Sequence record: MW822011
Length of the DNA stretch: 64,000 nt
Direction: 5' to 3' (one strand)
Source of the DNA: Shigella phage TB004
Positions 1,918 to 56,192 of the stretch are shown one piece after another; within the stretch, counting starts at the first letter, position 1; every line of letters begins with the position of its first letter. The translations under genes were made by a program, and so were the position numbers. The notes under the pieces were generated by a model. That model did not search any database, was not told the origin of the DNA, and worked only from the letters and a program-made list of their open reading frames with translations.

Positions 1918-4900
1918 CTATTTTAACCTGTGTTGGATTTTCAGGGTCTCTTGGATTTCCTATATTATCTTTTAGACGTTTATTAACTAAATCTCTAAAT
2001 TGCGCAAATGTTGTTCCAGATGCATCAAATAAAGGACTCATTAATTTGCGTCGTTCAGATGGCAATTGACCTTGAAATATTGAATTATTATTTTCAGCAT
2101 TATAGTCATCAGGAAGAGGATATTTTACACCAGCCATTGGGCCAGGTTCATAAATTGCTTCGCCTGTTACCGAATCATGCTCAATTTCACCGGTTGGAGT
2201 TAATTTAGCTACTCTATCAGCATATTCAGTAGGCAATCCAGAATCCCATTTGTAGTTTTTGTATTTATTAATTATAGTCTCTGTGTGTTTAAGAGTTAAA
2301 CCAACATTAATAAACATTGTTAAAAGAGTAATTGCTATAAATCCAAATCCTACTGGATGAACAAAACGAATAACGTCAGATTTCCAGCGGGAAGAAGGTA
2401 AATTGGATTTAATTTTCATTACATAATATGATCTACTTCTATTAATATAGTCTATATTATTTTGAAGCAAATCCTTCCCTTTAACCCCGCGAATAATTTC
2501 GCCTTCAAAACTAGGGAGTCTTTCTGCTTTAACTTCTTGACCGGCAATTAATCTTCCCAAAAGATTATGAATAGTTACGGTCCATTGCAATTTACCGTTA
2601 GAATAACTTCTTTCTATATAAGTAACATTACATCTTCCTGTGGCTGTATAAATCGTTTGTCCTACTAAGTCTTCAGTCAAAGAATCAGATTGAACGATTA
2701 TATCATATTCAGTACCAGCCCCAGATTCAATTTCAATTTCAACCTCTTCATTATAAAGAACTTTAAAAAGAAATTTGTATGATGCTTCAATTCCTTTAGT
2801 AGAATAAAAATCATAGCTACGTGATTCAAAAAATCTTGCAACAGCATCACGTTTGTCAGCATTTAAATAAATGTTTCTTTTATATATCTCTGACCACAAA
2901 TATTCCCATGCATGCTCTTCTCGTGGATATTTGTTACGAATTAAATTTCGTAAATTGTTATACTGAGTTCCATATCCATCAGAAAGATATTGAATATATG
3001 CTTCGCAAAATGCTTCAAAATTCGAATCCTGTAACAAATAAGAATCAGGCATCATTGTGCCAATCAACGGTCTTAAATCAGGGTCAGCTAATCCACGCTC
3101 TTCTTCGGGCGACCAAGGAGTTTCATGCTCTTGGTTTTGTAAAAATGCTTTTAAAAATACTTCAGTTGGCTTCCAAATAATTTCGACAGTGTCTCTAACA
3201 CGATAGTTAAAATCATAGTAAGAAATTATTTCACCAGAGGCTTTATAGAAAAGCATCCCAGATGCATATTTTTTAAATCCAGTGAATTTAACATTTGGCA
3301 TTACTATAGTGCAATCGCCATCGTCCCAATATTCATGAACTAATCTATCTGGTGATGTTTCCGGAATATTTTCTATAACTTTAGTGTATTTTAAATCAGC
3401 ATAAACTACTACAACCCTATCAGAGTTGTTTATCCAACAACGTGTGTTAGATTTTTTAGACCAGTTAAAGAATGGTTCAGCGTAGTATTTCATCGGCTGA
3501 GGAGTAAAAGTTTCCCAATCAGACTTTTCATCTGCTATAAATGCCATCATATGATAATGCTTATCAGCTAGCCATTCACGAGGAAATTCATATTTAACGG
3601 CACCGATTAACTGATATTTTGCTGCAGTTTCAGGGTCATTAACAACATTATCACTTAAAAATTTAAAATTACTCGATGATAGAGAAACTAATTTACCATC
3701 AGTTGACATATTCGCATACCCTGGTTGAATACGTCTTCTTTCTTCTTCAGTGTTGCCAAAAACTCTTTTCCATGTTTTTGTGTCATGATTTAAAACATAT
3801 ATTCCTTTATCAGCAGAATCAATTATTTTTGATGTTCTAGGATTAGCATTTAATGTTTCAACTTCACCAATAATAAGAGCAAAAACTTTATCACCGACAG
3901 AATCCATTTTATAGCATACTGCTTTAGGATTTCCGGTTATAGTCATTGTATCAGGTTCAAAAAGTCTTTCCGAATATGTCGGAGATAATGGATCAGAATC
4001 TATAGGTGCATTACTAGTTTTTATGTATCTAACTTTGTCTCTGGCGACAACGTAAATGTAATCATCGGTGCAAGTAATAGCTTCTGCAATACGGTATACA
4101 TTCGCCGGTAAAGTCGCGTAAGTAGCAAAAATTTCTACATCAAATCCTAAATGTAATTGGTCGCCAAGTTTAGCGAATGTTATATCCTGAGAACTAAATC
4201 TGACATCATCAGCTGACCATCTAACATCAGTCGATTTGCGGCCATAGAAAATCTTGTCGTATCCTAGAACGTATGTTGTGTTCGCAGATTGGTAATATAC
4301 TGTCTTAGATAAAGGATATCCTACGCGGTCATTGAAGAGCTTTACAGCTTTCCAAGTTTGTCCTTTATCATTGGATACTTTAACTACAGGTTGATAACGC
4401 TCAAAAAGGTATAAAATCCCTTCTGATTCCATCAAATAAACTCGGTTAATATCCTTACATACTTGCTGAATAGAACCTTGTATTTCATGATACTCATTTT
4501 CACCAATAATAAAATTGCTTATTGATGAAACGTCAACATATGATGGGCTGAACTGAAATGATTCATTCATTAATGCAGCCATTATAGTGTCATTATTAAA
4601 ATTGACATAATCAGAATTATTAAGAGTAAATTTTTCCTGAATGAATTTATTAGCTAATTGCATTTCAATCATGTTTTGAAATGTATAAGCATTTGTAGCA
4701 AAAGTTTCAAACTCTTCGGTATAAATCCAATCAGACTGCTCAAAATCTTGTGCAGCTGTAGCTACTCTAATAACGTATGATGTCAATGGGTCAGCATCAT
4801 CAAAAAAGAAGCTGTTATTTGCAGTATATCCTAAGTTAATCCATCTGTATTGATTACTCGGGAGATTTTCCCCCGAGTTTGTTTTTGTCTCAGCGATTTC

Positions 4901-13620: not shown

Positions 13621-13893
13621 ATGAAAACATTTAAAGAATTTATCAATGAAGCTACTTTTAACGAAAAAGTAAAAATTAGTAAAGCTGTCAAGACTTTGAT
13701 TGCTGACATCAATTACCTATATGATATTGATTTAACTGACTATGTAACAGTTGGTAACAAACGTAACTTTTTCGTGTTTGACATCTCTGAACTTGACCAG
13801 AATCAAATTAACAACATTGAGCGTTTTGCTAATGATAAGGGTCTTCGTCATGAGTCAGCGGGTTATAAAAAATACGCAATTTATTTAAAATGA
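13621..13893 (+). CDS. ipI: internal protein I-like, N-terminal capsid targeting sequence MKTFKEFINEA
   Basis: ATG with GGAG RBS; N-terminus matches the MKTYQEFIAE-type targeting sequence of T4 internal proteins; position after 57B. Confidence 0.6.
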   Translation: MKTFKEFINEATFNEKVKISKAVKTLIADINYLYDIDLTDYVTVGNKRNFFVFDISELDQNQINNIERFANDKGLRHESAGYKKYAIYLK

Positions 13894-13953: not shown

Positions 13954-14262
13954 ATGAAAACATTTAAAGAATTTATCAATGAAGCGGCTGCGCCAAAGAC
14001 ATTCGTTATTAATACTCAGGCGAGTCTTGATGATGAATACGCGGAGGCAATTCTGAAGTCACTTGCTAAGAACGGTGTTGAAGTAATTGCTTCGGACTTT
14101 AAGAAAGGGGCTTCCGAGATGTTTATTTCTATAACTAAAGGATCTAAAGCTAAGATTAAATCATCATTCGGAGTTGCTCGTACCGATCAAATCGACAATC
14201 ATGACTTTAAACAAACTGGTGCTAAACGGCAGAATACAATTGCATCACGCGGAATAAAATAG
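13954..14262 (+). CDS. second internal-protein-like gene with identical targeting sequence (MKTFKEFINEAAAP...) and different cargo
   Basis: 102-aa ORF with the same leader and first 11 codons as ipI. Confidence 0.55.
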   Translation: MKTFKEFINEAAAPKTFVINTQASLDDEYAEAILKSLAKNGVEVIASDFKKGASEMFISITKGSKAKIKSSFGVARTDQIDNHDFKQTGAKRQNTIASRGIK

Positions 14263-42399: not shown

Positions 42400-42864
42400 T
42401 TGATATGGAGATGGGACATGATTACAGTAGATAAGTGGTTTAGAATTAATCGTGCTGATAAAGGGCTGTGTAATTATTGGCCGGAACTTAGTGCAGGTAC
42501 TGTCTTTAAAGTTCGTGAACTTGCAAAAGAATGTGAAGATGATATAGAACCTGATACTGGAATTATTGAAATTGAACTTTCTGACGGAAAGATTATTAAC
42601 ATCTACGATAAACCAATTACATATTGGTGCTTGTGGAATACTGAATCAGTAGAAAACGGCGAAATTGAAGAAGTCGTAGAACGAGTTGATCAAGCTCTTC
42701 ATAAACCTAAAGCTGGATTTCAAGGTGAACGCATTTCATATGCATTAGCTAAATTAGCTGCACAAGAAAATAACGATGGCTATGAAGGAAATTTGATGCA
42801 AGCTGCAGCAGAATATATTGAATGGCTTGAAACTCAAATTTCTTTTTCTGAACGAGCATTTTAA
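42400..42864 (+). CDS. hypothetical acidic protein (154 aa)
   Basis: ORF upstream of gene 49. Confidence 0.45.
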   Translation: MIWRWDMITVDKWFRINRADKGLCNYWPELSAGTVFKVRELAKECEDDIEPDTGIIEIELSDGKIINIYDKPITYWCLWNTESVENGEIEEVVERVDQALHKPKAGFQGERISYALAKLAAQENNDGYEGNLMQAAAEYIEWLETQISFSERAF

Positions 42865-42912
42865 TACTTGAAAATAATAAATACCCTTATCTATTTAAGG
42901 TAAGGGTTTATT

Positions 42913-43386
42913 ATGTTATTGACTGGCAAATTATACAAAGAAGAAAAACAGAAATTTTATGATGCACAAAACGGTAAATGCTTAATTTGCCAACGAGAAC
43001 TAAATCCTGATGTTCAAGCTAATCACCTTGACCATGACCATGAATTAAATGGACCAAAAGCAGGAAAGGTACGTGGGTTGCTATGTAATCTCTGCAATGC
43101 TGCAGAAGGTCAAATGAAACATAAATTTAATCGTTCTGGCTTAAAGGGACAAGGTGTTGATTATCTTGAATGGTTAGAAAATTTACTTACTTATTTAAAA
43201 TCCGATTACACCCAAAATAATATTCACCCTAACTTTGTTGGAGATAAATCAAAGGAATTTTCTCGTTTAGGAAAAGAGGAAATGATGGCTGAGATGCTTC
43301 AAAGAGGATTTGAATATAATGAATTTGACACTAAAACACAATTAATAGCTTCATTTAAGAAGCAGCTTAGAAAGAGTTTAAAATGA
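42913..43386 (+). CDS. 49: recombination endonuclease VII (gp49)
   Basis: 157 aa with CLICQ...H-D-H-E...CNLCN zinc motif. Confidence 0.85.
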   Translation: MLLTGKLYKEEKQKFYDAQNGKCLICQRELNPDVQANHLDHDHELNGPKAGKVRGLLCNLCNAAEGQMKHKFNRSGLKGQGVDYLEWLENLLTYLKSDYTQNNIHPNFVGDKSKEFSRLGKEEMMAEMLQRGFEYNEFDTKTQLIASFKKQLRKSLK

Positions 43387-45200
43387 CAATTGAAAAAGAA
43401 ATTGAAGGATTGATTCATAAAACTAATAAAGACCTTTTAAACGAGAATGCTAATAAAGATTCTCGTGTTTTTCCAACTCAACGGGACCTTATGGCTGGTA
43501 TTGTGTCTAAGCACATTGCCAAAAATATGGTCCCGTCTTTTATTATGAAAGCACATGAAAGCGGAATCATTCACGTGCATGATATTGATTATTCTCCTGC
43601 TCTTCCGTTTACTAATTGCTGTTTAGTAGATTTAAAAGGAATGCTTGAAAACGGATTTAAATTAGGCAATGCACAGATTGAAACTCCTAAATCAATCGGT
43701 GTTGCTACTGCAATTATGGCACAAATTACTGCACAGGTTGCTTCCCATCAATACGGCGGAACGACTTTTGCGAATGTAGACAAAGTACTTTCTCCTTATG
43801 TTAAACGCACCTATGCAAAACATATTGAAGATGCAGAAAAATGGCAAATCGCTGATGCGTTGAATTATGCCCAATCTAAAACAGAAAAAGACGTATACGA
43901 TGCGTTCCAAGCTTATGAATATGAAGTAAATACTCTCTTTAGTTCAAACGGACAAACTCCTTTTGTAACAATTACATTTGGTACGGGAACTGACTGGACT
44001 GAACGAATGATTCAGAAAGCAATTCTGAAAAATCGCATTAAAGGTCTTGGCCGCGACGGGATAACTCCTATTTTCCCTAAACTTGTTATGTTTGTTGAAG
44101 AAGGTGTTAATCTTTATAAAGACGATCCGAACTATGATATTAAGCAGCTTGCTCTAGAGTGTGCAAGCAAAAGAATGTATCCTGATATTATTTCAGCTAA
44201 GAACAATAAAGCTATCACCGGTTCATCTATTCCTGTTTCTCCAATGGGTTGCCGTAGTTTCTTGAGCGTATGGAAAGATTCGACTGGTAATGAAATTCTT
44301 GATGGACGTAATAATCTTGGCGTTGTAACACTGAATCTTCCTCGTATTGCATTAGATTCTTATATTGGAACACAGTTCAATGAACAGAAATTTGCCGAAT
44401 TGTTCAATGAACGAATGGATTTGTGTTTTGAAGCATTGATGTGTAGAATTAGTTCATTAAAAGGAGTTAAATCTACTGTTGCTCCTATTCTTTACCAAGA
44501 AGGTGCATTCGGGGTTCGTCTTAAACCCGATGATGATATAATTGAGTTATTTAAAAACGGTAGAAGTTCAGTATCCCTAGGATACATTGGTATTCACGAA
44601 TTGAATATTCTTGTCGGTCGTGATATTGGTCAGGAAATTTTAACTAAAATGAATGCACATCTTAAGCAGTGGACTGAAAGAACTGGTTTTGCTTTTAGCT
44701 TGTATTCTACACCTGCTGAAAACCTGTGTTATCGCTTCTGTAAACTCGATACCGAAAAATATGGAAGTGTAAAGGATGTTACTGATAAAGGCTGGTACAC
44801 TAACAGTTTCCATGTTTCAGTAGAAGAAAATATCACTCCGTTTGAAAAGATTTCTCGCGAAGCGCCATATCATTTCATTGCGACAGGTGGTCACATTTCT
44901 TATGTTGAACTTCCTGATATGAAAAATAACCTAAAGGGTCTTGAGGCTGTATGGGATTATGCTGCACAACATTTAGATTATTTTGGTGTTAATATGCCAG
45001 TAGATAAATGTTTTACATGTGGAAGTACCCATGAAATGACTCCTACTGAAAACGGATTTGTTTGTTCTATTTGTGGAGAAACTGATCCTAAAAAGATGAA
45101 CACAATAAGAAGAACATGCGGATATTTGGGAAACCCGAACGAACGCGGATTTAATCTTGGTAAAAATAAAGAAATCATGCATAGGGTTAAACACCAATGA
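43383..45200 (+). CDS. nrdD: anaerobic ribonucleoside-triphosphate reductase NrdD (uninterrupted)
   Basis: 605-aa continuous ORF ending in glycyl-radical motif RRTCGYLGNP and Cys cluster. Confidence 0.9.
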   Translation: MTIEKEIEGLIHKTNKDLLNENANKDSRVFPTQRDLMAGIVSKHIAKNMVPSFIMKAHESGIIHVHDIDYSPALPFTNCCLVDLKGMLENGFKLGNAQIETPKSIGVATAIMAQITAQVASHQYGGTTFANVDKVLSPYVKRTYAKHIEDAEKWQIADALNYAQSKTEKDVYDAFQAYEYEVNTLFSSNGQTPFVTITFGTGTDWTERMIQKAILKNRIKGLGRDGITPIFPKLVMFVEEGVNLYKDDPNYDIKQLALECASKRMYPDIISAKNNKAITGSSIPVSPMGCRSFLSVWKDSTGNEILDGRNNLGVVTLNLPRIALDSYIGTQFNEQKFAELFNERMDLCFEALMCRISSLKGVKSTVAPILYQEGAFGVRLKPDDDIIELFKNGRSSVSLGYIGIHELNILVGRDIGQEILTKMNAHLKQWTERTGFAFSLYSTPAENLCYRFCKLDTEKYGSVKDVTDKGWYTNSFHVSVEENITPFEKISREAPYHFIATGGHISYVELPDMKNNLKGLEAVWDYAAQHLDYFGVNMPVDKCFTCGSTHEMTPTENGFVCSICGETDPKKMNTIRRTCGYLGNPNERGFNLGKNKEIMHRVKHQ

Positions 45201-46036
45201 ATTACGATAGATTTTATCCCTGTGATTTTGTGAATGATAAATTAACTTTAATATTTGAAGAAAATAATGATTTATTATTGTCATATGTTGATTTGATAAT
45301 AAAAAATTATAATAATCCTAAAATAAAGGGGAAAACGGAAGCACATCACGTGCTTCCCAAATCTATATTTCCTGAATATAAAACAGATAAATGGAATATT
45401 GTTAATTTGTCATATTATGACCATGCATTGGCTCATTACTATTTAGCTAAAACAAGTAATAGTAAAATGTGTTATGCCTTTCATAGAATGATAAACTCGA
45501 ATACTGATAGATTTAATACTGATGAATTGGATGAAATTTTTAAATTGTATTCCAAAGAAAGGGAATTATTTCACCGCTCTATGTCAAAATTATCGAAAAA
45601 TATATGGAAAGATGACGATTTTAGAAAAAGACATAGCGAACTAACTAAGTTAGCAATGCAAAAACCTGAAGTTAGAAATAAAACTTTATTAAATTTGTCA
45701 AATGCAATGAAAACTGATAAAGTTAGAAATAAAATTTCAAGGCTAACTAAGTTAGCAATGCAAAAACCTGAAGTAAAAGAAAAACATAGAAATTCATTAA
45801 AGCTGGCGTATGCAAATCCTGAGGTTATGAAAAGGAAACATCAGCGTCTTCGAGAAAAATATACTCTTAATTTATTTGGCGCATATAAAGATGGTGTTCT
45901 TTTAAAAACATTTAATTATATACCAGACGCAGCAAAATATTTTAATATTTCTAGCAAAGGAAATATTTTAAAATGTTTAAATGGCGAACGTAAAAGTGTT
46001 GAAGGCTATAATTGGAAATATATAAATGAATTATGA
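45197..46036 (+). CDS. HNH homing endonuclease (Mob-like) between nrdD and nrdG
   Basis: HNH motif EAHHVLPKS...NIVNLSYYDHALAH; N-terminal 14 codons mimic nrdG; C-terminal DNA-binding module. Confidence 0.7.
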   Translation: MNYDRFYPCDFVNDKLTLIFEENNDLLLSYVDLIIKNYNNPKIKGKTEAHHVLPKSIFPEYKTDKWNIVNLSYYDHALAHYYLAKTSNSKMCYAFHRMINSNTDRFNTDELDEIFKLYSKERELFHRSMSKLSKNIWKDDDFRKRHSELTKLAMQKPEVRNKTLLNLSNAMKTDKVRNKISRLTKLAMQKPEVKEKHRNSLKLAYANPEVMKRKHQRLREKYTLNLFGAYKDGVLLKTFNYIPDAAKYFNISSKGNILKCLNGERKSVEGYNWKYINEL

Positions 46037-46496
46037 CAGAATATATCCGTGTTGCTTTGTTAATGGTCCTGGGTGCCGAACTGTTCTTTTCGTTACGGGG
46101 TGTTTGCATAAATGTGAAGGATGTTATAATAAATCAACATGGAATGCTAGAAATGGCGTTCCATTCACTGGTGAAACACTGGAACAATTAATTGAATGTT
46201 TGAATAATGATTATATAGAAGGATTAACTATAACTGGAGGAGACCCTCTCTATCCTGATAACCGAGATGTTATTCATTGCATCGTTCAAACAGTAAAAAA
46301 TCTTTATCCCAATAAAAGCATTTGGTTGTGGACAGGATACAAGTTTGAAGATATTAAACAACTAGAAATGCTTAAATATGTTGATGTTATTATTGATGGG
46401 AAGTATGAGAAAAATCTTCCGACCAAAAAGCTGTGGCGAGGTTCAGATAATCAGCGACTTTGGTCAAATACCGATGGGGTGTGGAAACATGATTAA
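46026..46496 (+). CDS. nrdG: anaerobic RNR activating protein NrdG (radical SAM)
   Basis: Cys motifs CRTVLFVTGCLHKCEGC. Confidence 0.85.
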   Translation: MNYDRIYPCCFVNGPGCRTVLFVTGCLHKCEGCYNKSTWNARNGVPFTGETLEQLIECLNNDYIEGLTITGGDPLYPDNRDVIHCIVQTVKNLYPNKSIWLWTGYKFEDIKQLEMLKYVDVIIDGKYEKNLPTKKLWRGSDNQRLWSNTDGVWKHD

Positions 46497-46610
46497 ATTG
46501 AATTATATTATGGACACTATAAATGATATGATTTTTCATTTTGGTCCAGAATTTTATTCGCAGTATAGTTTAGTACTTATCAATGCTTGGTTAATCAATT
46601 AAGGGTAAAT

Positions 46611-46826
46611 ATGTATAAATTTCGTAAAGGTTTAGCTGATTTTCTTACAACCGTAACGTTCTTTTTGTTTATGGCAGTTGGTGCTATTTTTCTTATTCCT
46701 TTTATTGCTATATTTTTCGTGATTAGCTTAATTTCTCCAGAAAAAGGCTTATCTTCTAGCGAATTCAATGAGCGTCTGGATAAAATTACTAACAAGCTGA
46801 ATTCTGTTCTTGATAAAAAGGCTTAA
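46611..46826 (+). CDS. small membrane protein (71 aa)
   Basis: MYKFRKGLADFLTTVTFFLFMAVGAIFLIPFIAIFFVISLI... Confidence 0.4.
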   Translation: MYKFRKGLADFLTTVTFFLFMAVGAIFLIPFIAIFFVISLISPEKGLSSSEFNERLDKITNKLNSVLDKKA

Positions 46827-46828
46827 TT

Positions 46829-47140
46829 ATGATTAGTTTTGAGCAGTATGTGGTAGAGAGTTGGAAAGGTTTTGATATGTTCGGTAATGACTATTATTTC
46901 TATGAATGTAGTCTAAATCCTAGTTTTTGGGCTGGACGTGAACGAGAACTCGAAGAAATTAATAACCGTGCTGAATTGTTAGGTGAATTACCTACGGTTT
47001 ATTTTACCTTTGATGCATCTGGATTTGTTATCCAGGTTTATTTTCCTGAAGAAAATTCTGGCGATGATTCTGTTAACCCGCCATACTGGGCTTATCAAGG
47101 AATTATTTCTCGTGGAACAAAACTCGAACTTAAAGAATAA
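46829..47140 (+). CDS. hypothetical protein (103 aa)
   Basis: ATG-initiated ORF. Confidence 0.45.
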   Translation: MISFEQYVVESWKGFDMFGNDYYFYECSLNPSFWAGRERELEEINNRAELLGELPTVYFTFDASGFVIQVYFPEENSGDDSVNPPYWAYQGIISRGTKLELKE

Positions 47141-50814: not shown

Positions 50815-51609
50815 ATGAATTATTTAAATATATATAATTTACTGATAGAAAAAGGACTAAACAGAGGCAATGATAAAAGTCTTTTGACATACTATACTGA
50901 AACTCATCATATAATTCCTAGATGTATGGGTGGTACAGATGATAAAACTAATTTAGTTCTTTTGACACCAGAAGAACATTTTACCGCGCATTTATTATTA
51001 TTTAAAATTTATAGACTTCCTAAATTGGCTTTAGCTATTCGTATGATGTGTTATAGTTCTGACGGAACAAGACTAAATAATAAAATGTATGGATGGATTA
51101 AAACAGCTGTATCTTCCTCAATATCGGAAGGCATGAAAGAGTTCTGGAAAGATGATGATAATAAAAAATACATGTCTAACGCTAGACGAAATGCTGGAAA
51201 ACCAATTTATCAATATGATTTAAATGGAAATTTTATTCGCAAATATAGATGTATTACAGATGCTGCAGAAGATATGTCATATAGCTGTTCAAGTTCAATT
51301 AAACAATGTGTAGATGGGAAAAGGAAAACCGCTGGAGGATTTCAATGGAAATATTATTATTCTGATAACATAGGAAAGCCCTCTAGGATGTCTAATGCAA
51401 CTAAACAAAAAATGTCTAAATCTAAACGTGGGATAACTCAGAAAAGAAATGTGCCAGTATTTCAATATGATACTACTGGAAAATTATTACGAGTATTTCC
51501 TAAAATTAAAGACGCAGCTGTATCCGTTAAAGGATGCATGTCTAATATTAAAAAGTGCATATCTGGAAAAAGCAAAATTGCTTATGGATATGTTTGGGCC
51601 TATTCGTAG
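50815..51609 (+). CDS. HNH homing endonuclease (Mob-like) with two tandem C-terminal DNA-binding repeats
   Basis: HNH motif ETHHIIPRCMGG...NLVLLTPEEH; two repeats of P(I/V)xQYD..G...DAA...IKxC..GK...GxxW. Confidence 0.7.
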   Translation: MNYLNIYNLLIEKGLNRGNDKSLLTYYTETHHIIPRCMGGTDDKTNLVLLTPEEHFTAHLLLFKIYRLPKLALAIRMMCYSSDGTRLNNKMYGWIKTAVSSSISEGMKEFWKDDDNKKYMSNARRNAGKPIYQYDLNGNFIRKYRCITDAAEDMSYSCSSSIKQCVDGKRKTAGGFQWKYYYSDNIGKPSRMSNATKQKMSKSKRGITQKRNVPVFQYDTTGKLLRVFPKIKDAAVSVKGCMSNIKKCISGKSKIAYGYVWAYS

Positions 51610-54326: not shown

Positions 54327-54513
54327 CATTAATGATGAATTCATAGCAAATATTGATTACACCGAAGAAGATTCTAGATATGTTGGAATAATTTATATCA
54401 CATCAAAAGCAGCACAAGGTGTTGTTTGCATGGCTGAATTTGATGAATACTTTTTAGATTATGATGATATGATAGAATGGTCTAAAAGATACATTAAAAG
54501 GAATCTTTTGTGA
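54250..54513 (+). CDS. hypothetical protein (87 aa)
   Basis: ORF overlapping its neighbours. Confidence 0.35.
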   Translation: MTHLNHYKIWLYLVLRMHTVKFSTFDINDEFIANIDYTEEDSRYVGIIYITSKAAQGVVCMAEFDEYFLDYDDMIEWSKRYIKRNLL

Positions 54514-56192
54514 AGAATTTTAAACTAAACCGAGTTAGGTATCAAAATATAATGTCAGTAGGTGGAAATCCTATTGACATTCAATTAGATAAGGTTCAAA
54601 AAACTCTTATTACTGGACGAAATGGCGGTGGTAAGTCTACTATGTTAGAAGCCATCACGTTTGGGCTTTTCGGCAAGCCATTCCGTGATGTAAAGAAAGG
54701 TCAATTAATAAACAGCACAAATAAGAAAGAACTTTTAGTTGAATTGTGGATGGAATATGATGAGAAAAAGTACTATATCAAAAGAGGACAAAAACCAAAC
54801 GTTTTCGAAATCACCGTTAACGGTACACGTCTTAATGAATCTGCCAGCAGTAAAGATTTCCAAGCAGAATTTGAACAGCTTATCGGAATGTCATATGCCA
54901 GTTTCAAACAGATCGTCGTACTCGGCACGGCTGGATATACCCCTTTCATGGGCCTATCCACTCCTGCAAGAAGAAAACTCGTCGAAGACCTGCTCGAAGT
55001 AGGAACATTAGCTGAAATGGATAAGCTTAATAAAGCACTAATACGTGAATTAAATTCACAAAACCAAGTGCTTGATGTTAAAAAAGATAGTATTATCCAA
55101 CAAATTAAAATATATAATGATAACGTTGAACGCCAGAAAAAATTAACTGGTGATAACCTTACTCGTCTGCAGAATATGTATGATGATTTGGCGAAAGAAG
55201 CTAGAACGTTAAAATCGGAAATAGAAGAAGCTAATGAAAGATTAGTTAATATTGTTTTAGATGAAGACCCGACTGATGCATTTAATAAAATCGGTCAAGA
55301 AGCATTTTTAATTAAATCAAAAATTGATTCGTATAATAAAGTCATTAATATGTATCACGAAGGTGGATTATGTCCAACCTGTTTGTCACAATTAAGTTCC
55401 GGTGATAAAGTTGTTTCTAAAATTAAAGATAAAGTTTCTGAATGCACGCATTCGTTTGAACAGCTTTCAACACATCGTGATAATTTAAAAGTTCTTGTTG
55501 ATGAATACCGAGATAATATTAAAACCCAGCAGACGTTGGCGAATGATATTCGCAATAAAAAGCAATCTCTAATCACGACGGTAGATAAAGCTAAAAAGGT
55601 TAAAGCGGCTATAGAAAAAGCATCATCTGAGTTTATTGACCATGCTGATGAAATAGCACTGCTTCAAGAAGAACTTGATAAAATTGTTAAGACAAAAACT
55701 AATTTAGTAATGGAAAAATACCATAGAGGAATTTTGACTGATATGCTCAAAGATTCTGGTATTAAAGGTGCTATTATTAAAAAGTACATTCCATTATTTA
55801 ATAAGCAGATTAACCATTATCTTAAAATAATGGAAGCGGATTATGTGTTTACATTAGATGAAGAATTTAATGAGACAATTAAATCCCGTGGTCGTGAAGA
55901 TTTTAGTTATGCTTCATTTAGTGAAGGTGAAAAAGCACGAATCGATATTGCCCTTTTATTTACTTGGCGTGATATTGCTTCTATCGTATCTGGTGTTAGT
56001 ATTAGTACATTAATTCTTGATGAAGTGTTTGATGGGTCATTTGATGCCGAAGGTATTAAAGGCGTAGCTAATATTATAAATTCAATGAAAAATACTAATG
56101 TTTTTATAATTTCGCATAAAGACCATGACCCGCAAGAATATGGTCAGCATCTTCAAATGAAGAAAGTTGGTCGATTTACTGTAATGGTTTAA
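54510..56192 (+). CDS. 46: recombination ATPase subunit gp46 (Rad50/SbcC-like)
   Basis: 560 aa, Walker A GRNGGGKST, long coiled-coil, C-terminal signature region. Confidence 0.85.
   Translation: MKNFKLNRVRYQNIMSVGGNPIDIQLDKVQKTLITGRNGGGKSTMLEAITFGLFGKPFRDVKKGQLINSTNKKELLVELWMEYDEKKYYIKRGQKPNVFEITVNGTRLNESASSKDFQAEFEQLIGMSYASFKQIVVLGTAGYTPFMGLSTPARRKLVEDLLEVGTLAEMDKLNKALIRELNSQNQVLDVKKDSIIQQIKIYNDNVERQKKLTGDNLTRLQNMYDDLAKEARTLKSEIEEANERLVNIVLDEDPTDAFNKIGQEAFLIKSKIDSYNKVINMYHEGGLCPTCLSQLSSGDKVVSKIKDKVSECTHSFEQLSTHRDNLKVLVDEYRDNIKTQQTLANDIRNKKQSLITTVDKAKKVKAAIEKASSEFIDHADEIALLQEELDKIVKTKTNLVMEKYHRGILTDMLKDSGIKGAIIKKYIPLFNKQINHYLKIMEADYVFTLDEEFNETIKSRGREDFSYASFSEGEKARIDIALLFTWRDIASIVSGVSISTLILDEVFDGSFDAEGIKGVANIINSMKNTNVFIISHKDHDPQEYGQHLQMKKVGRFTVMV

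Follow-up and report, generated by a model that had tools for sequence, protein, structure and literature searches.

The window analyzed here comprises 64,000 nucleotides (nt) of Shigella phage TB004 (sequence record MW822011), a T4-like phage of the genus Tequatrovirus, whose closest record in the region of interest is that of Escherichia phage Ec_MI-02 (98.4% identity over 1.5 kb). At the junction of nrdD and nrdG, which encode the large subunit of the anaerobic ribonucleotide reductase and its activase, the window harbors an open reading frame (ORF) of 279 codons. This ORF is likely the gene of a free-standing HNH-type homing endonuclease, carried by a cassette that sits inside the coding sequence of nrdG, where it captured the start of its target gene and replaced it. 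The assignment is drawn from sequence comparison, and cleavage and homing are presumed. The endonuclease ORF has no start codon of its own but reads from the original ATG of nrdG, at which translation would begin, and its first 13 residues are those of NrdG. The left of the two nrdG 5' ends present at the locus is resident nrdG sequence, whereas the right one is an imported allele that travels with the cassette across genera. The components of the locus, and an unoccupied site that serves as reference below, have the following window coordinates:

42913-43386: gp49 endonuclease VII, first in the order gp49, nrdD, 279-codon ORF, nrdG
43383-45200 (+): nrdD, anaerobic ribonucleotide reductase large subunit, intronless, 605 codons, identified by the ORF list and the nrdD label in matching phage records
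45197-46036 (+): endonuclease ORF, putatively of a divergent HNH type, 279 amino acids (aa), identified by PHROG matches and similarity to the MobC core
45197-45236 (+): left copy, the resident first 40 nt of nrdG (ATG and 13 codons), now start codon and N-terminus of the endonuclease ORF
45237-46065 (+): inserted cassette of 829 bp, consisting of the endonuclease body and a substitute 40-nt nrdG 5' end, delimited by comparison of occupied and empty sites
45329-45448 (+): putative HNH catalytic core, aa 45-84, GKTEAHHVLPKSIFPEY...WNIVNLSYYDHALAH, based on invariant residues, an AlphaFold model and the MobC alignment
45641-45774 (+): internal direct repeat, two perfect 32-nt copies (45641-45672 and 45743-45774), encoding LTKLAMQKPEV
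45899-46012 (+): C-terminal NUMOD1 / I-HmuI-like helix-turn-helix region, aa 235-272, a weak match
46026-46065 (+): right copy, the cassette-borne first 40 nt of nrdG, variant allele MNYDRIYPCCFVN (I6, D10C)
46026-46496 (+): nrdG, radical-SAM activase of NrdD, intact, 156 aa (Pfam Fer4_12, E 3e-48; Radical_SAM)
54510-54560 (+): start of gene 46 (sbcC-like; GTG, VKNFKLNRV...), the unoccupied site of a T6-type endonuclease paralogue and the empty-site reference for it

Insertion point within nrdG and the two 5' ends

The ATG of the endonuclease ORF overlaps the stop codon of nrdD (ATGA at 45197), as recorded in a first-pass annotation of the window, and its own stop codon lies 11 nt inside nrdG. 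The right copy also holds, in another frame, the last three endonuclease codons and the TGA stop. The left and right 5' ends match at 31 positions over 40-41 nt and differ at 9 of 40, which corresponds to about 77% identity rather than the 80% given initially. At the protein level, 11 of 13 aa are shared (MNYDRFYPCDFVN versus MNYDRIYPCCFVN).

The insertion point is revealed by phages whose site is empty. One of these is HY01, where the stop codon of nrdD and the ATG of nrdG overlap directly, and the left copy of the window is identical to the HY01 nrdG 5' end at 40 of 40 positions. The occupied query span measures 1501 nt and the empty one 672 nt, a difference of 829 nt, and divergence from the empty sites begins exactly after ...TTTGTGAATG, nt 40 of nrdG, at the same breakpoint in Tequatrovirus and Jiaodavirus. 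Thus, the insertion point lies inside nrdG and in frame. The comparison of the junction with insert-free relatives, which the first-pass annotation had proposed, bore out the polymorphism of the site, but the gene does not lie between nrdD and nrdG as assumed there: the additional 829 bp follow nt 40 of nrdG. Since the captured ATG overlaps the nrdD stop, the endonuclease would inherit the translational coupling of nrdG to nrdD. The 3' end of the cassette provides a substitute ATG and 13 codons, overlapping the endonuclease stop by 11 nt, and in this way a full-length nrdG is rebuilt. No second in-frame ATG is present between the captured start and the HNH motif.

The left copies follow the host genus. 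The Jiaodavirus copy, MNFDRIYPSDFVN, agrees exactly with the beginning of nrdG in the Jiaodavirus empty sites L022 and L031, and in PST, SA20RB and BF15 the left copy carries silent polymorphisms of empty sites, whereas the right copy always encodes I6 and C10. The Klebsiella Jiaodavirus endonuclease shares 85% nt and 88% aa identity with that of the window, and the rebuilt nrdG again starts with MNYDRIYPCC. The right-copy allele (I6, D10C and silent changes) was found in every occupied Tequatrovirus and Jiaodavirus locus examined and is nearly alike in both genera. The same allele also occurs beside segH, a different endonuclease gene at this position, and as a trans-genus allele it is not a duplication made at insertion. 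The earlier proposal that the target's 5' end was duplicated on insertion is therefore abandoned: the upstream copy is resident and the downstream copy is a distinct, travelling allele. A feature specific to the Jiaodavirus background is an ORF of 77 aa between nrdD and nrdG that overlaps both genes and matches DUF7415 (Pfam E 2e-11; 2798-3031 in Klebsiella phage SmallBear, L002, and also in L022 and L031); it is absent from Tequatrovirus.

The extent of the mobile unit is apparent from the differences that are fixed between four occupied and ten empty alleles. These are confined to nrdG nt 12, 18, 24, 28, 29 and 30, and neither nrdG nt 41-471 nor the 290 nt of nrdD that were compared contained a fixed difference. 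This indicates that the mobile unit is sharply bounded and that its flanks recombine freely with the population. From about nt 60 onwards nrdG of the window resembles the empty-site alleles, the binned identity to HY01 being 22, 22 and then 26-30 of 30.

Among Tequatrovirus empty sites the variant nrdG 5' allele was found in none of ten, but it is present in four of five segH-bearing genomes (RB3, PP01, fPS-2 and KIT06), and KIT06 shares the unusual GGTCCTGGGTGCCGAACT of the window. Judged from these alignments, the variant nrdG 5' end is an allele class linked to endonuclease occupancy of the nrdD-nrdG slot. A scan of IMG/VR for the variant allele gave no match, so that the link between allele and occupancy refers to GenBank phages only. 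Three empty sites from IMG/VR (L008, L009 and L024) contain an nrdG with the occupied-type right-flank haplotype (T42, A55, C56) but with the common D10. These could be products of precise cassette loss via the 40-nt repeats, or the background of the first landing.

Distribution and recurrence at other genes

The cassette was detected in 21 Tequatrovirus records, among 741 phage records matching the region, and in 10 Klebsiella Jiaodavirus records. In most of the 741 records the site is empty and the ATG of nrdG overlaps the stop codon of nrdD; 60 records sampled at even spacing comprised about 44 empty sites, about seven with segH, two with T4 mobC and two of the window type, plus a Klebsiella record. 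Presence and absence at one precise site among otherwise collinear genomes is the pattern expected of a homing endonuclease gene, and the classification of the ORF as a free-standing HNH-type gene of this kind, present in some phages and absent in others, holds. The first-pass annotation had named two observations that would speak against it, a similarity of the 5' ends that is not significant at the DNA level and a universal presence of the gene; the similarity exceeds chance in shuffles and among ORF pairs (see below), and the insert was found in the 21 and 10 records mentioned.

The ratio of nonsynonymous to synonymous divergence (dN/dS) between the Tequatrovirus and Jiaodavirus copies of the endonuclease is 0.07, indicative of purifying selection. 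Between the two genera dS amounts to 0.90 for the endonuclease, 1.97 for nrdG and 2.65 for nrdD, and is saturated for gp49. The endonuclease value lies below those of the flanking genes, which points to a transfer between the genera after their split and indicates that the cassette moved independently of its flanks. Decay was also observed. In BF15 (L037) a frameshift disrupts the endonuclease gene after about 36 codons, and the T6-type paralogue (P0006, RB51/RB68) is truncated to 208 aa in RB68. The natural variant P0003, which has lost one repeat unit, likewise represents a decay stage.

The endonuclease belongs to a tiny subfamily with seven clusters among 5.8 billion proteins, and the same architecture recurs in its closest relatives at other genes. 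In T6 a paralogue with 36% identity precedes gene 46, its insertion point following nt 17 of that gene. The first 17 nt of the T6 ORF, GTGAAGAATTTTAAACT, are the gene 46 start found at the empty site of the window at 54510, and the T6 gene 46 restarts past the insert with a new ATGAAATCATTTAAACTT. In VR7 a relative begins with GTGACCGTTAAGCC, with which gene 49.1 starts in VR26, a related phage whose site is empty, and gene 49.1 of VR7 restarts at a new ATGAATAAACCTTGG. In a metagenomic member (P0004) the first 11 nt are common to the endonuclease ORF and the following dexA-like gene. Another metagenomic member (P0007, L040) has no adjacent downstream gene that could be compared for capture. 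The number of captured codons is 13 in nrdG, six in gene 46, five in gene 49.1 and three to four in the dexA-like gene. That the small HNH subfamily with the core GKTEAHHVLPKSIFPEY uses start-codon capture and 5'-end replacement as a general, so far undescribed strategy is a proposal with roughly even chances of being correct. Such endonucleases would rely on the initiation signals of their targets for translation and bring along a variant spare 5' end, which rebuilds the target and may protect it from cutting. The recurrence of this layout at three further genes is suggestive of a rule and not of an accident.

The window contains a second HNH gene, which is MobB-like and lies upstream of the alpha-glucosyltransferase gene (50815-51609, +). 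Its product matches Pfam NUMOD1 (two matched stretches), I-HmuI_NUMOD-like and HNH, and its N-terminus MNYLNIYNLLIEKG contains the Mob motif MNYxxIY, a motif that by coincidence resembles the beginning of NrdG, MNYDRIYP. This gene has its own start and holds no copy of the start of the downstream gene.

The encoded protein and other occupants of the slot

The 279-aa product matched PHROG 655 'homing endonuclease' (E 1e-36) and PHROG 12434 'HNH endonuclease' (E 9e-15). BLASTP against the HNH core of T4 MobC showed 38% identity over 60 aa (E 1e-7), and the part of MobC that aligns with the core of the endonuclease matches Pfam HNH. Residues H50, H51, N67, H76 and H80 are invariant across seven relatives (alignment A2). 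An AlphaFold model, with pLDDT values of about 85-90 in this part, has strands at 47-51 and 68-72 followed by a helix at 73-84, so that the HH...N...H motif would be positioned in a predicted beta-beta-alpha unit, as is characteristic of HNH proteins. The family assignment is based on these features. A sequence search of chains in the Protein Data Bank (PDB) yielded nothing (E 0.36).

The internal repeat LTKLAMQKPEV, correctly described in the first-pass annotation, is encoded by a perfect 32-nt direct repeat with copies at 45641 and 45743. These are 102 nt or 34 codons apart, within a region resembling NUMOD3 DNA-binding repeats, although a Pfam scan of the endonuclease gave no NUMOD3 hit. 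The two copies co-vary within lineages, and a natural variant of 242 aa (P0003) lacks exactly one 34-codon unit. The relative P0007 passes the Pfam cut-offs for I-HmuI_NUMOD-like, NUMOD1 and NUMOD3.

The nrdD-nrdG slot is occupied by three different endonuclease genes, namely the cassette endonuclease, T4 mobC and segH. It is a published hot spot for such genes, with mobC in T4 and segH elsewhere (Sandegren et al. 2005, cited in PMC2988022 and bioRxiv 10.1101/2022.08.31.505936). Among the phages in which segH takes the place of mobC are RB3 and PP01 (Sandegren, Nord & Sjöberg 2005, cited in PMC2988022). In the review by Edgell et al. 2010 the activity of MobC is given as not determined and its target as unknown (PMC2988022).

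T4 is more than an intron-bearing counterpart. The nrdD gene of the window is one uninterrupted ORF of 605 codons, whereas that of T4 consists of two joined pieces around the I-TevII intron; this contrast, noted from the start, agrees with the ORF list, the I-TevII pieces and the negative Rfam result. However, T4 also carries the different, 210-aa HNH gene mobC in the slot. Both T4 MobC and the cassette endonuclease belong to PHROG 655, have homologous HNH cores and start at an ATGA overlap with nrdD. Both also have nrdG-like first codons (MNYDRIY in T4) and a 3' end encoding WKY..EL (WKYKDEL in T4), with the stop on the TGA of nrdG codons 3-4. They differ in length (210 versus 279 aa) and share no detectable similarity outside the HNH core, so that location in the slot is common to both but full-length similarity is lacking. 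A tblastn search with T4 MobC returned about 32 records at >=95% identity, none of the window type. Only seven codons of T4 mobC are nrdG-like, and these also fit the N-terminal motif of the Mob family, MNYxxIY, which leaves a captured nrdG start in T4 MobC ambiguous; as a speculation, its MNYDRIY start may have the same capture origin. T4 nrdG differs from the cassette-borne allele in that it retains D10 and shows three consecutive silent changes of its own (TTC GTT AAC) immediately 5' of nt 40.

The T4 nrdG gene (L004, NC_000866 42446-42916) is itself mosaic. In a comparison with L001 and L002, its nucleotides from about 61 to 330 match Klebsiella Jiaodavirus nrdG at 26-30 of 30 positions per bin, and in its last third 29-30 of 30 positions agree with Tequatrovirus alleles. 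This looks like a co-conversion tract of roughly 300 nt beside T4 mobC.

SegH occupies the same slot and is linked to the same variant nrdG 5' end (MNYDRIYPCC), but it belongs to the unrelated GIY-YIG catalytic family, with a Pfam NUMOD3 match and weak SegE_GIY-YIG and I-TevI DNA-binding hits. The segH phages (L046-L050, which are RB3, PP01, fPS-2, Pu-Krd-SF1 and KIT06) have no left nrdG copy; in place of the final 70 nt or so of nrdD they carry a diverged version, which ends in TPSVVPWNLGKMKEMVKRVKHA before the stop codon. In the RB3 annotation segH is called segD and the nrdG start is placed internally. The segH ORF starts with ATGCATAGG, the same 9 nt that are found 21 nt before the resident nrdD stop. 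SegH was considered as a captor of resident codons on this basis and dropped, as the upstream context is not resident-like and the 9-nt match may be due to chance.

Klebsiella phage Miro (L036, Slopekvirus) contains a MobC-like HNH gene, 45% identical to T4 MobC, directly upstream of nrdG. In this genus nrdG is not adjacent to nrdD, and in Miro its first roughly 20 nt differ from Slopekvirus-like empty sites.

Alternative explanations, possible mechanism and known systems

A chance origin of the 5' similarity, favored by the AT-rich region and by the ATGAA with which both gene starts open, has a negligible probability and is already refuted. The next-best match of the 41-mer on both strands of the window is 23 of 41, and the best of 300 shuffled queries reached 28, compared with 31 for the nrdG start. 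Among 99 adjacent same-strand ORF pairs in the window, the matches over nt 4-40 average 11.5 (sd 3.8), and the endonuclease/nrdG pair is an outlier with 28; moreover, the left copy is identical at 40 of 40 positions to alleles of other genomes. A transposon-like target-site duplication, made anew at each insertion, would explain why two direct 40-nt copies flank the insert body. It is highly improbable, since the two copies of a single genome disagree at 9 of 40 positions instead of being identical, the right copy is trans-genus while the left copies are genus-specific, and the right-copy allele also lies downstream of segH, where no left copy exists. All six loci that were read argue against it. 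To our knowledge, a duplication of 40 nt also far exceeds the stagger of any HNH cut.

It is somewhat less improbable, but still quite unlikely, that the ORF is a simple orthologue of T4 mobC, an ordinary intergenic gene whose NrdG-like N-terminus is the Mob motif MNYxxIYxxL(I/V) and not captured DNA. GenBank records of PST and SA20RB label the gene mobC, T4 mobC lies in the slot, begins with MNYDRIY and has the end WKYKDEL on the overlapping nrdG ATG, and the MobB-like MNYLNIYNLLIEKG and the MobC-like MNYQKIYDSLISKY of Miro show MNYxxIY to be a family motif. However, the similarity to MobC is confined to the 60-aa core, and those endonucleases of the subfamily that sit at gene 46 and gene 49.1 carry the first codons of these genes at their start instead of MNY. 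A protein motif cannot explain first 40 nt that are identical in DNA to resident nrdG alleles and follow the host genus; for these 40 nt the explanation is refuted by the empty-site alleles. Somewhat more weight, although it too is unlikely, is given to a resident nuclease or DNA-binding protein that is no longer mobile and is kept for a phage function such as the exclusion of co-infecting phages or regulation of nrdG, the patchy distribution being due to recombination and loss. This would agree with the strong purifying selection, with a dS of 0.9 between genera, by which transfer was not recent, and with the free recombination of the flanks. The 40-nt repeats would allow precise loss, and the empty L008, L009 and L024 share the occupied right-flank haplotype. 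An active homing endonuclease would, however, also show purifying selection, and the same precise breakpoint in two genera whose flanking genes have a dS of about 2 or more, the frameshifted and truncated copies and the competition of three different endonuclease genes for one slot stand against this explanation.

If the capture cassette is a homing element, the enzyme would cut cassette-free nrdG alleles at or near nt 40, presumably within the stretch GAY TTT GTG AAT GGC CCT GG (DFVNGPG), which is nearly identical in both invaded genera. In a mixed infection, repair of the double-strand break would then copy the cassette from the carrier genome, with homology provided by nrdD and nrdG nt 1-40 at the left end and by nrdG from nt 41 onwards at the right end. 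The carrier itself would be spared on the left because the junction keeps only the upstream half of the site, and on the right because the rebuilt site is a variant allele with constant changes including GAY to TGC (D10C). This layout probably originated when an endonuclease gene upstream of a foreign nrdG entered a genome without upstream homology. Repair would then have relied on homology at the right side but been illegitimate at the left, and the endonuclease would have stayed translated only if joined in frame to an expressed start. The MobC-like gene of Miro, located upstream of an nrdG that lacks an adjacent nrdD, shows that donors of the required kind exist. The precise insertion point leads to the predictions that the cut falls in the DFVNGPG stretch, that translation starts at the captured ATG and that the D10C allele is resistant. 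That the cassette and the unrelated segH have the variant 5' end in common suggests competition of two different endonucleases for a single target, with one resistant allele shared by both.

Several points weigh against the capture cassette or parts of it. The cut site is inferred from the breakpoint and a short converted tract, and the immunity of the variant allele is a conjecture. According to Sandegren et al. 2005, SegH and Hef reportedly also cut their own genomes, in which case self-immunity might be dispensable. Nor is the variant nrdG 5' allele confined to the cassette, as it accompanies segH, and the segH phage Pu-Krd-SF1 has the common allele. Base-by-base reading covered four occupied Tequatrovirus and two Jiaodavirus loci, and the example of P0004 lacks an empty-site control. 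With regard to the protein, the Pfam scan of the endonuclease gave no HNH hit, and both C-terminal hits are below the curated cut-offs (I-HmuI_NUMOD-like, E 2.4e-4, 21.1 bits against 27; NUMOD1, E 5e-3, 17.4 bits against 22.8); the AlphaFold model is of low confidence past residue 210. When this model was used for structure searches, no HNH structures were recovered and the hits were confined to helical-repeat noise.

Free-standing endonuclease genes of T4-like phages are usually described as intergenic genes whose products cut a neighboring gene. The mobE gene of phage Aeh1 is comparable in that a free-standing HNH gene reportedly lies inside a ribonucleotide reductase gene (nrdA) of a T4-like phage, with the function of nrdA retained (Friedrich et al. 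2007 PNAS; Crona et al. 2011, PMC3045599). However, nrdA as described there stays in two pieces that assemble as proteins, whereas a substitute 5' end restores nrdG to a single ORF, its orphaned 5' end serving as N-terminus of the endonuclease.

Endonucleases of introns and inteins, such as I-TevII in T4 nrdD and I-HmuI, likewise reside in conserved coding sequence, disrupt their presumed site and leave gene function intact, and I-HmuI has the same modular order of HNH, NUMOD3-like repeats and helix-turn-helix. The nrdG cassette differs from them since it contains neither an intron nor intein motifs and restores integrity at the DNA level by a spare 5' end. A group I intron is not indicated, as the ORFs overlap and have no non-coding flanks, and an Rfam scan of 42800-47000 revealed no intron or other RNA family at E<=1. 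In some cases from fungal mitochondria, a second, foreign copy of a displaced gene end keeps the host gene intact. The hybrid atp6 gene of Allomyces, reported by Paquin, Laforest & Lang in 1994, and LAGLIDADG insertions in rps3 are said to contain an endonuclease ORF in frame with part of the target. These cases concern gene 3' ends, other endonuclease families and organelle genomes, unlike the nrdG cassette, and serve as a lead only.

That the slot is a hot spot for endonuclease genes was known already, and relatives of the ORF are annotated as putative homing endonucleases. In the literature searched, no description was found of an insertion inside nrdG with start-codon capture, of a spare 5' end shared with segH phages, or of this design recurring at three other genes. 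If correct, capture and replacement would allow a homing endonuclease gene to reside at its own recognition site within an essential coding sequence by a DNA-level route, as an alternative to introns and inteins. It also bears on annotation, since annotators label the gene mobC, 'activating protein' or hypothetical, and the nrdG start is sometimes misplaced.

In a promoter and terminator scan of 42800-46900, promoter-like sites were fewer than in shuffled sequences (15 versus 18.8); no embedded promoters are therefore claimed. Elsewhere in the window, a duplicated gene start occurs without an endonuclease. Two adjacent small ORFs (13621-13893 and 13954-14262, +) share an identical 43-nt stretch, after which they diverge completely; it comprises the ribosome-binding site and the first 11 codons (MKTFKEFINEA).

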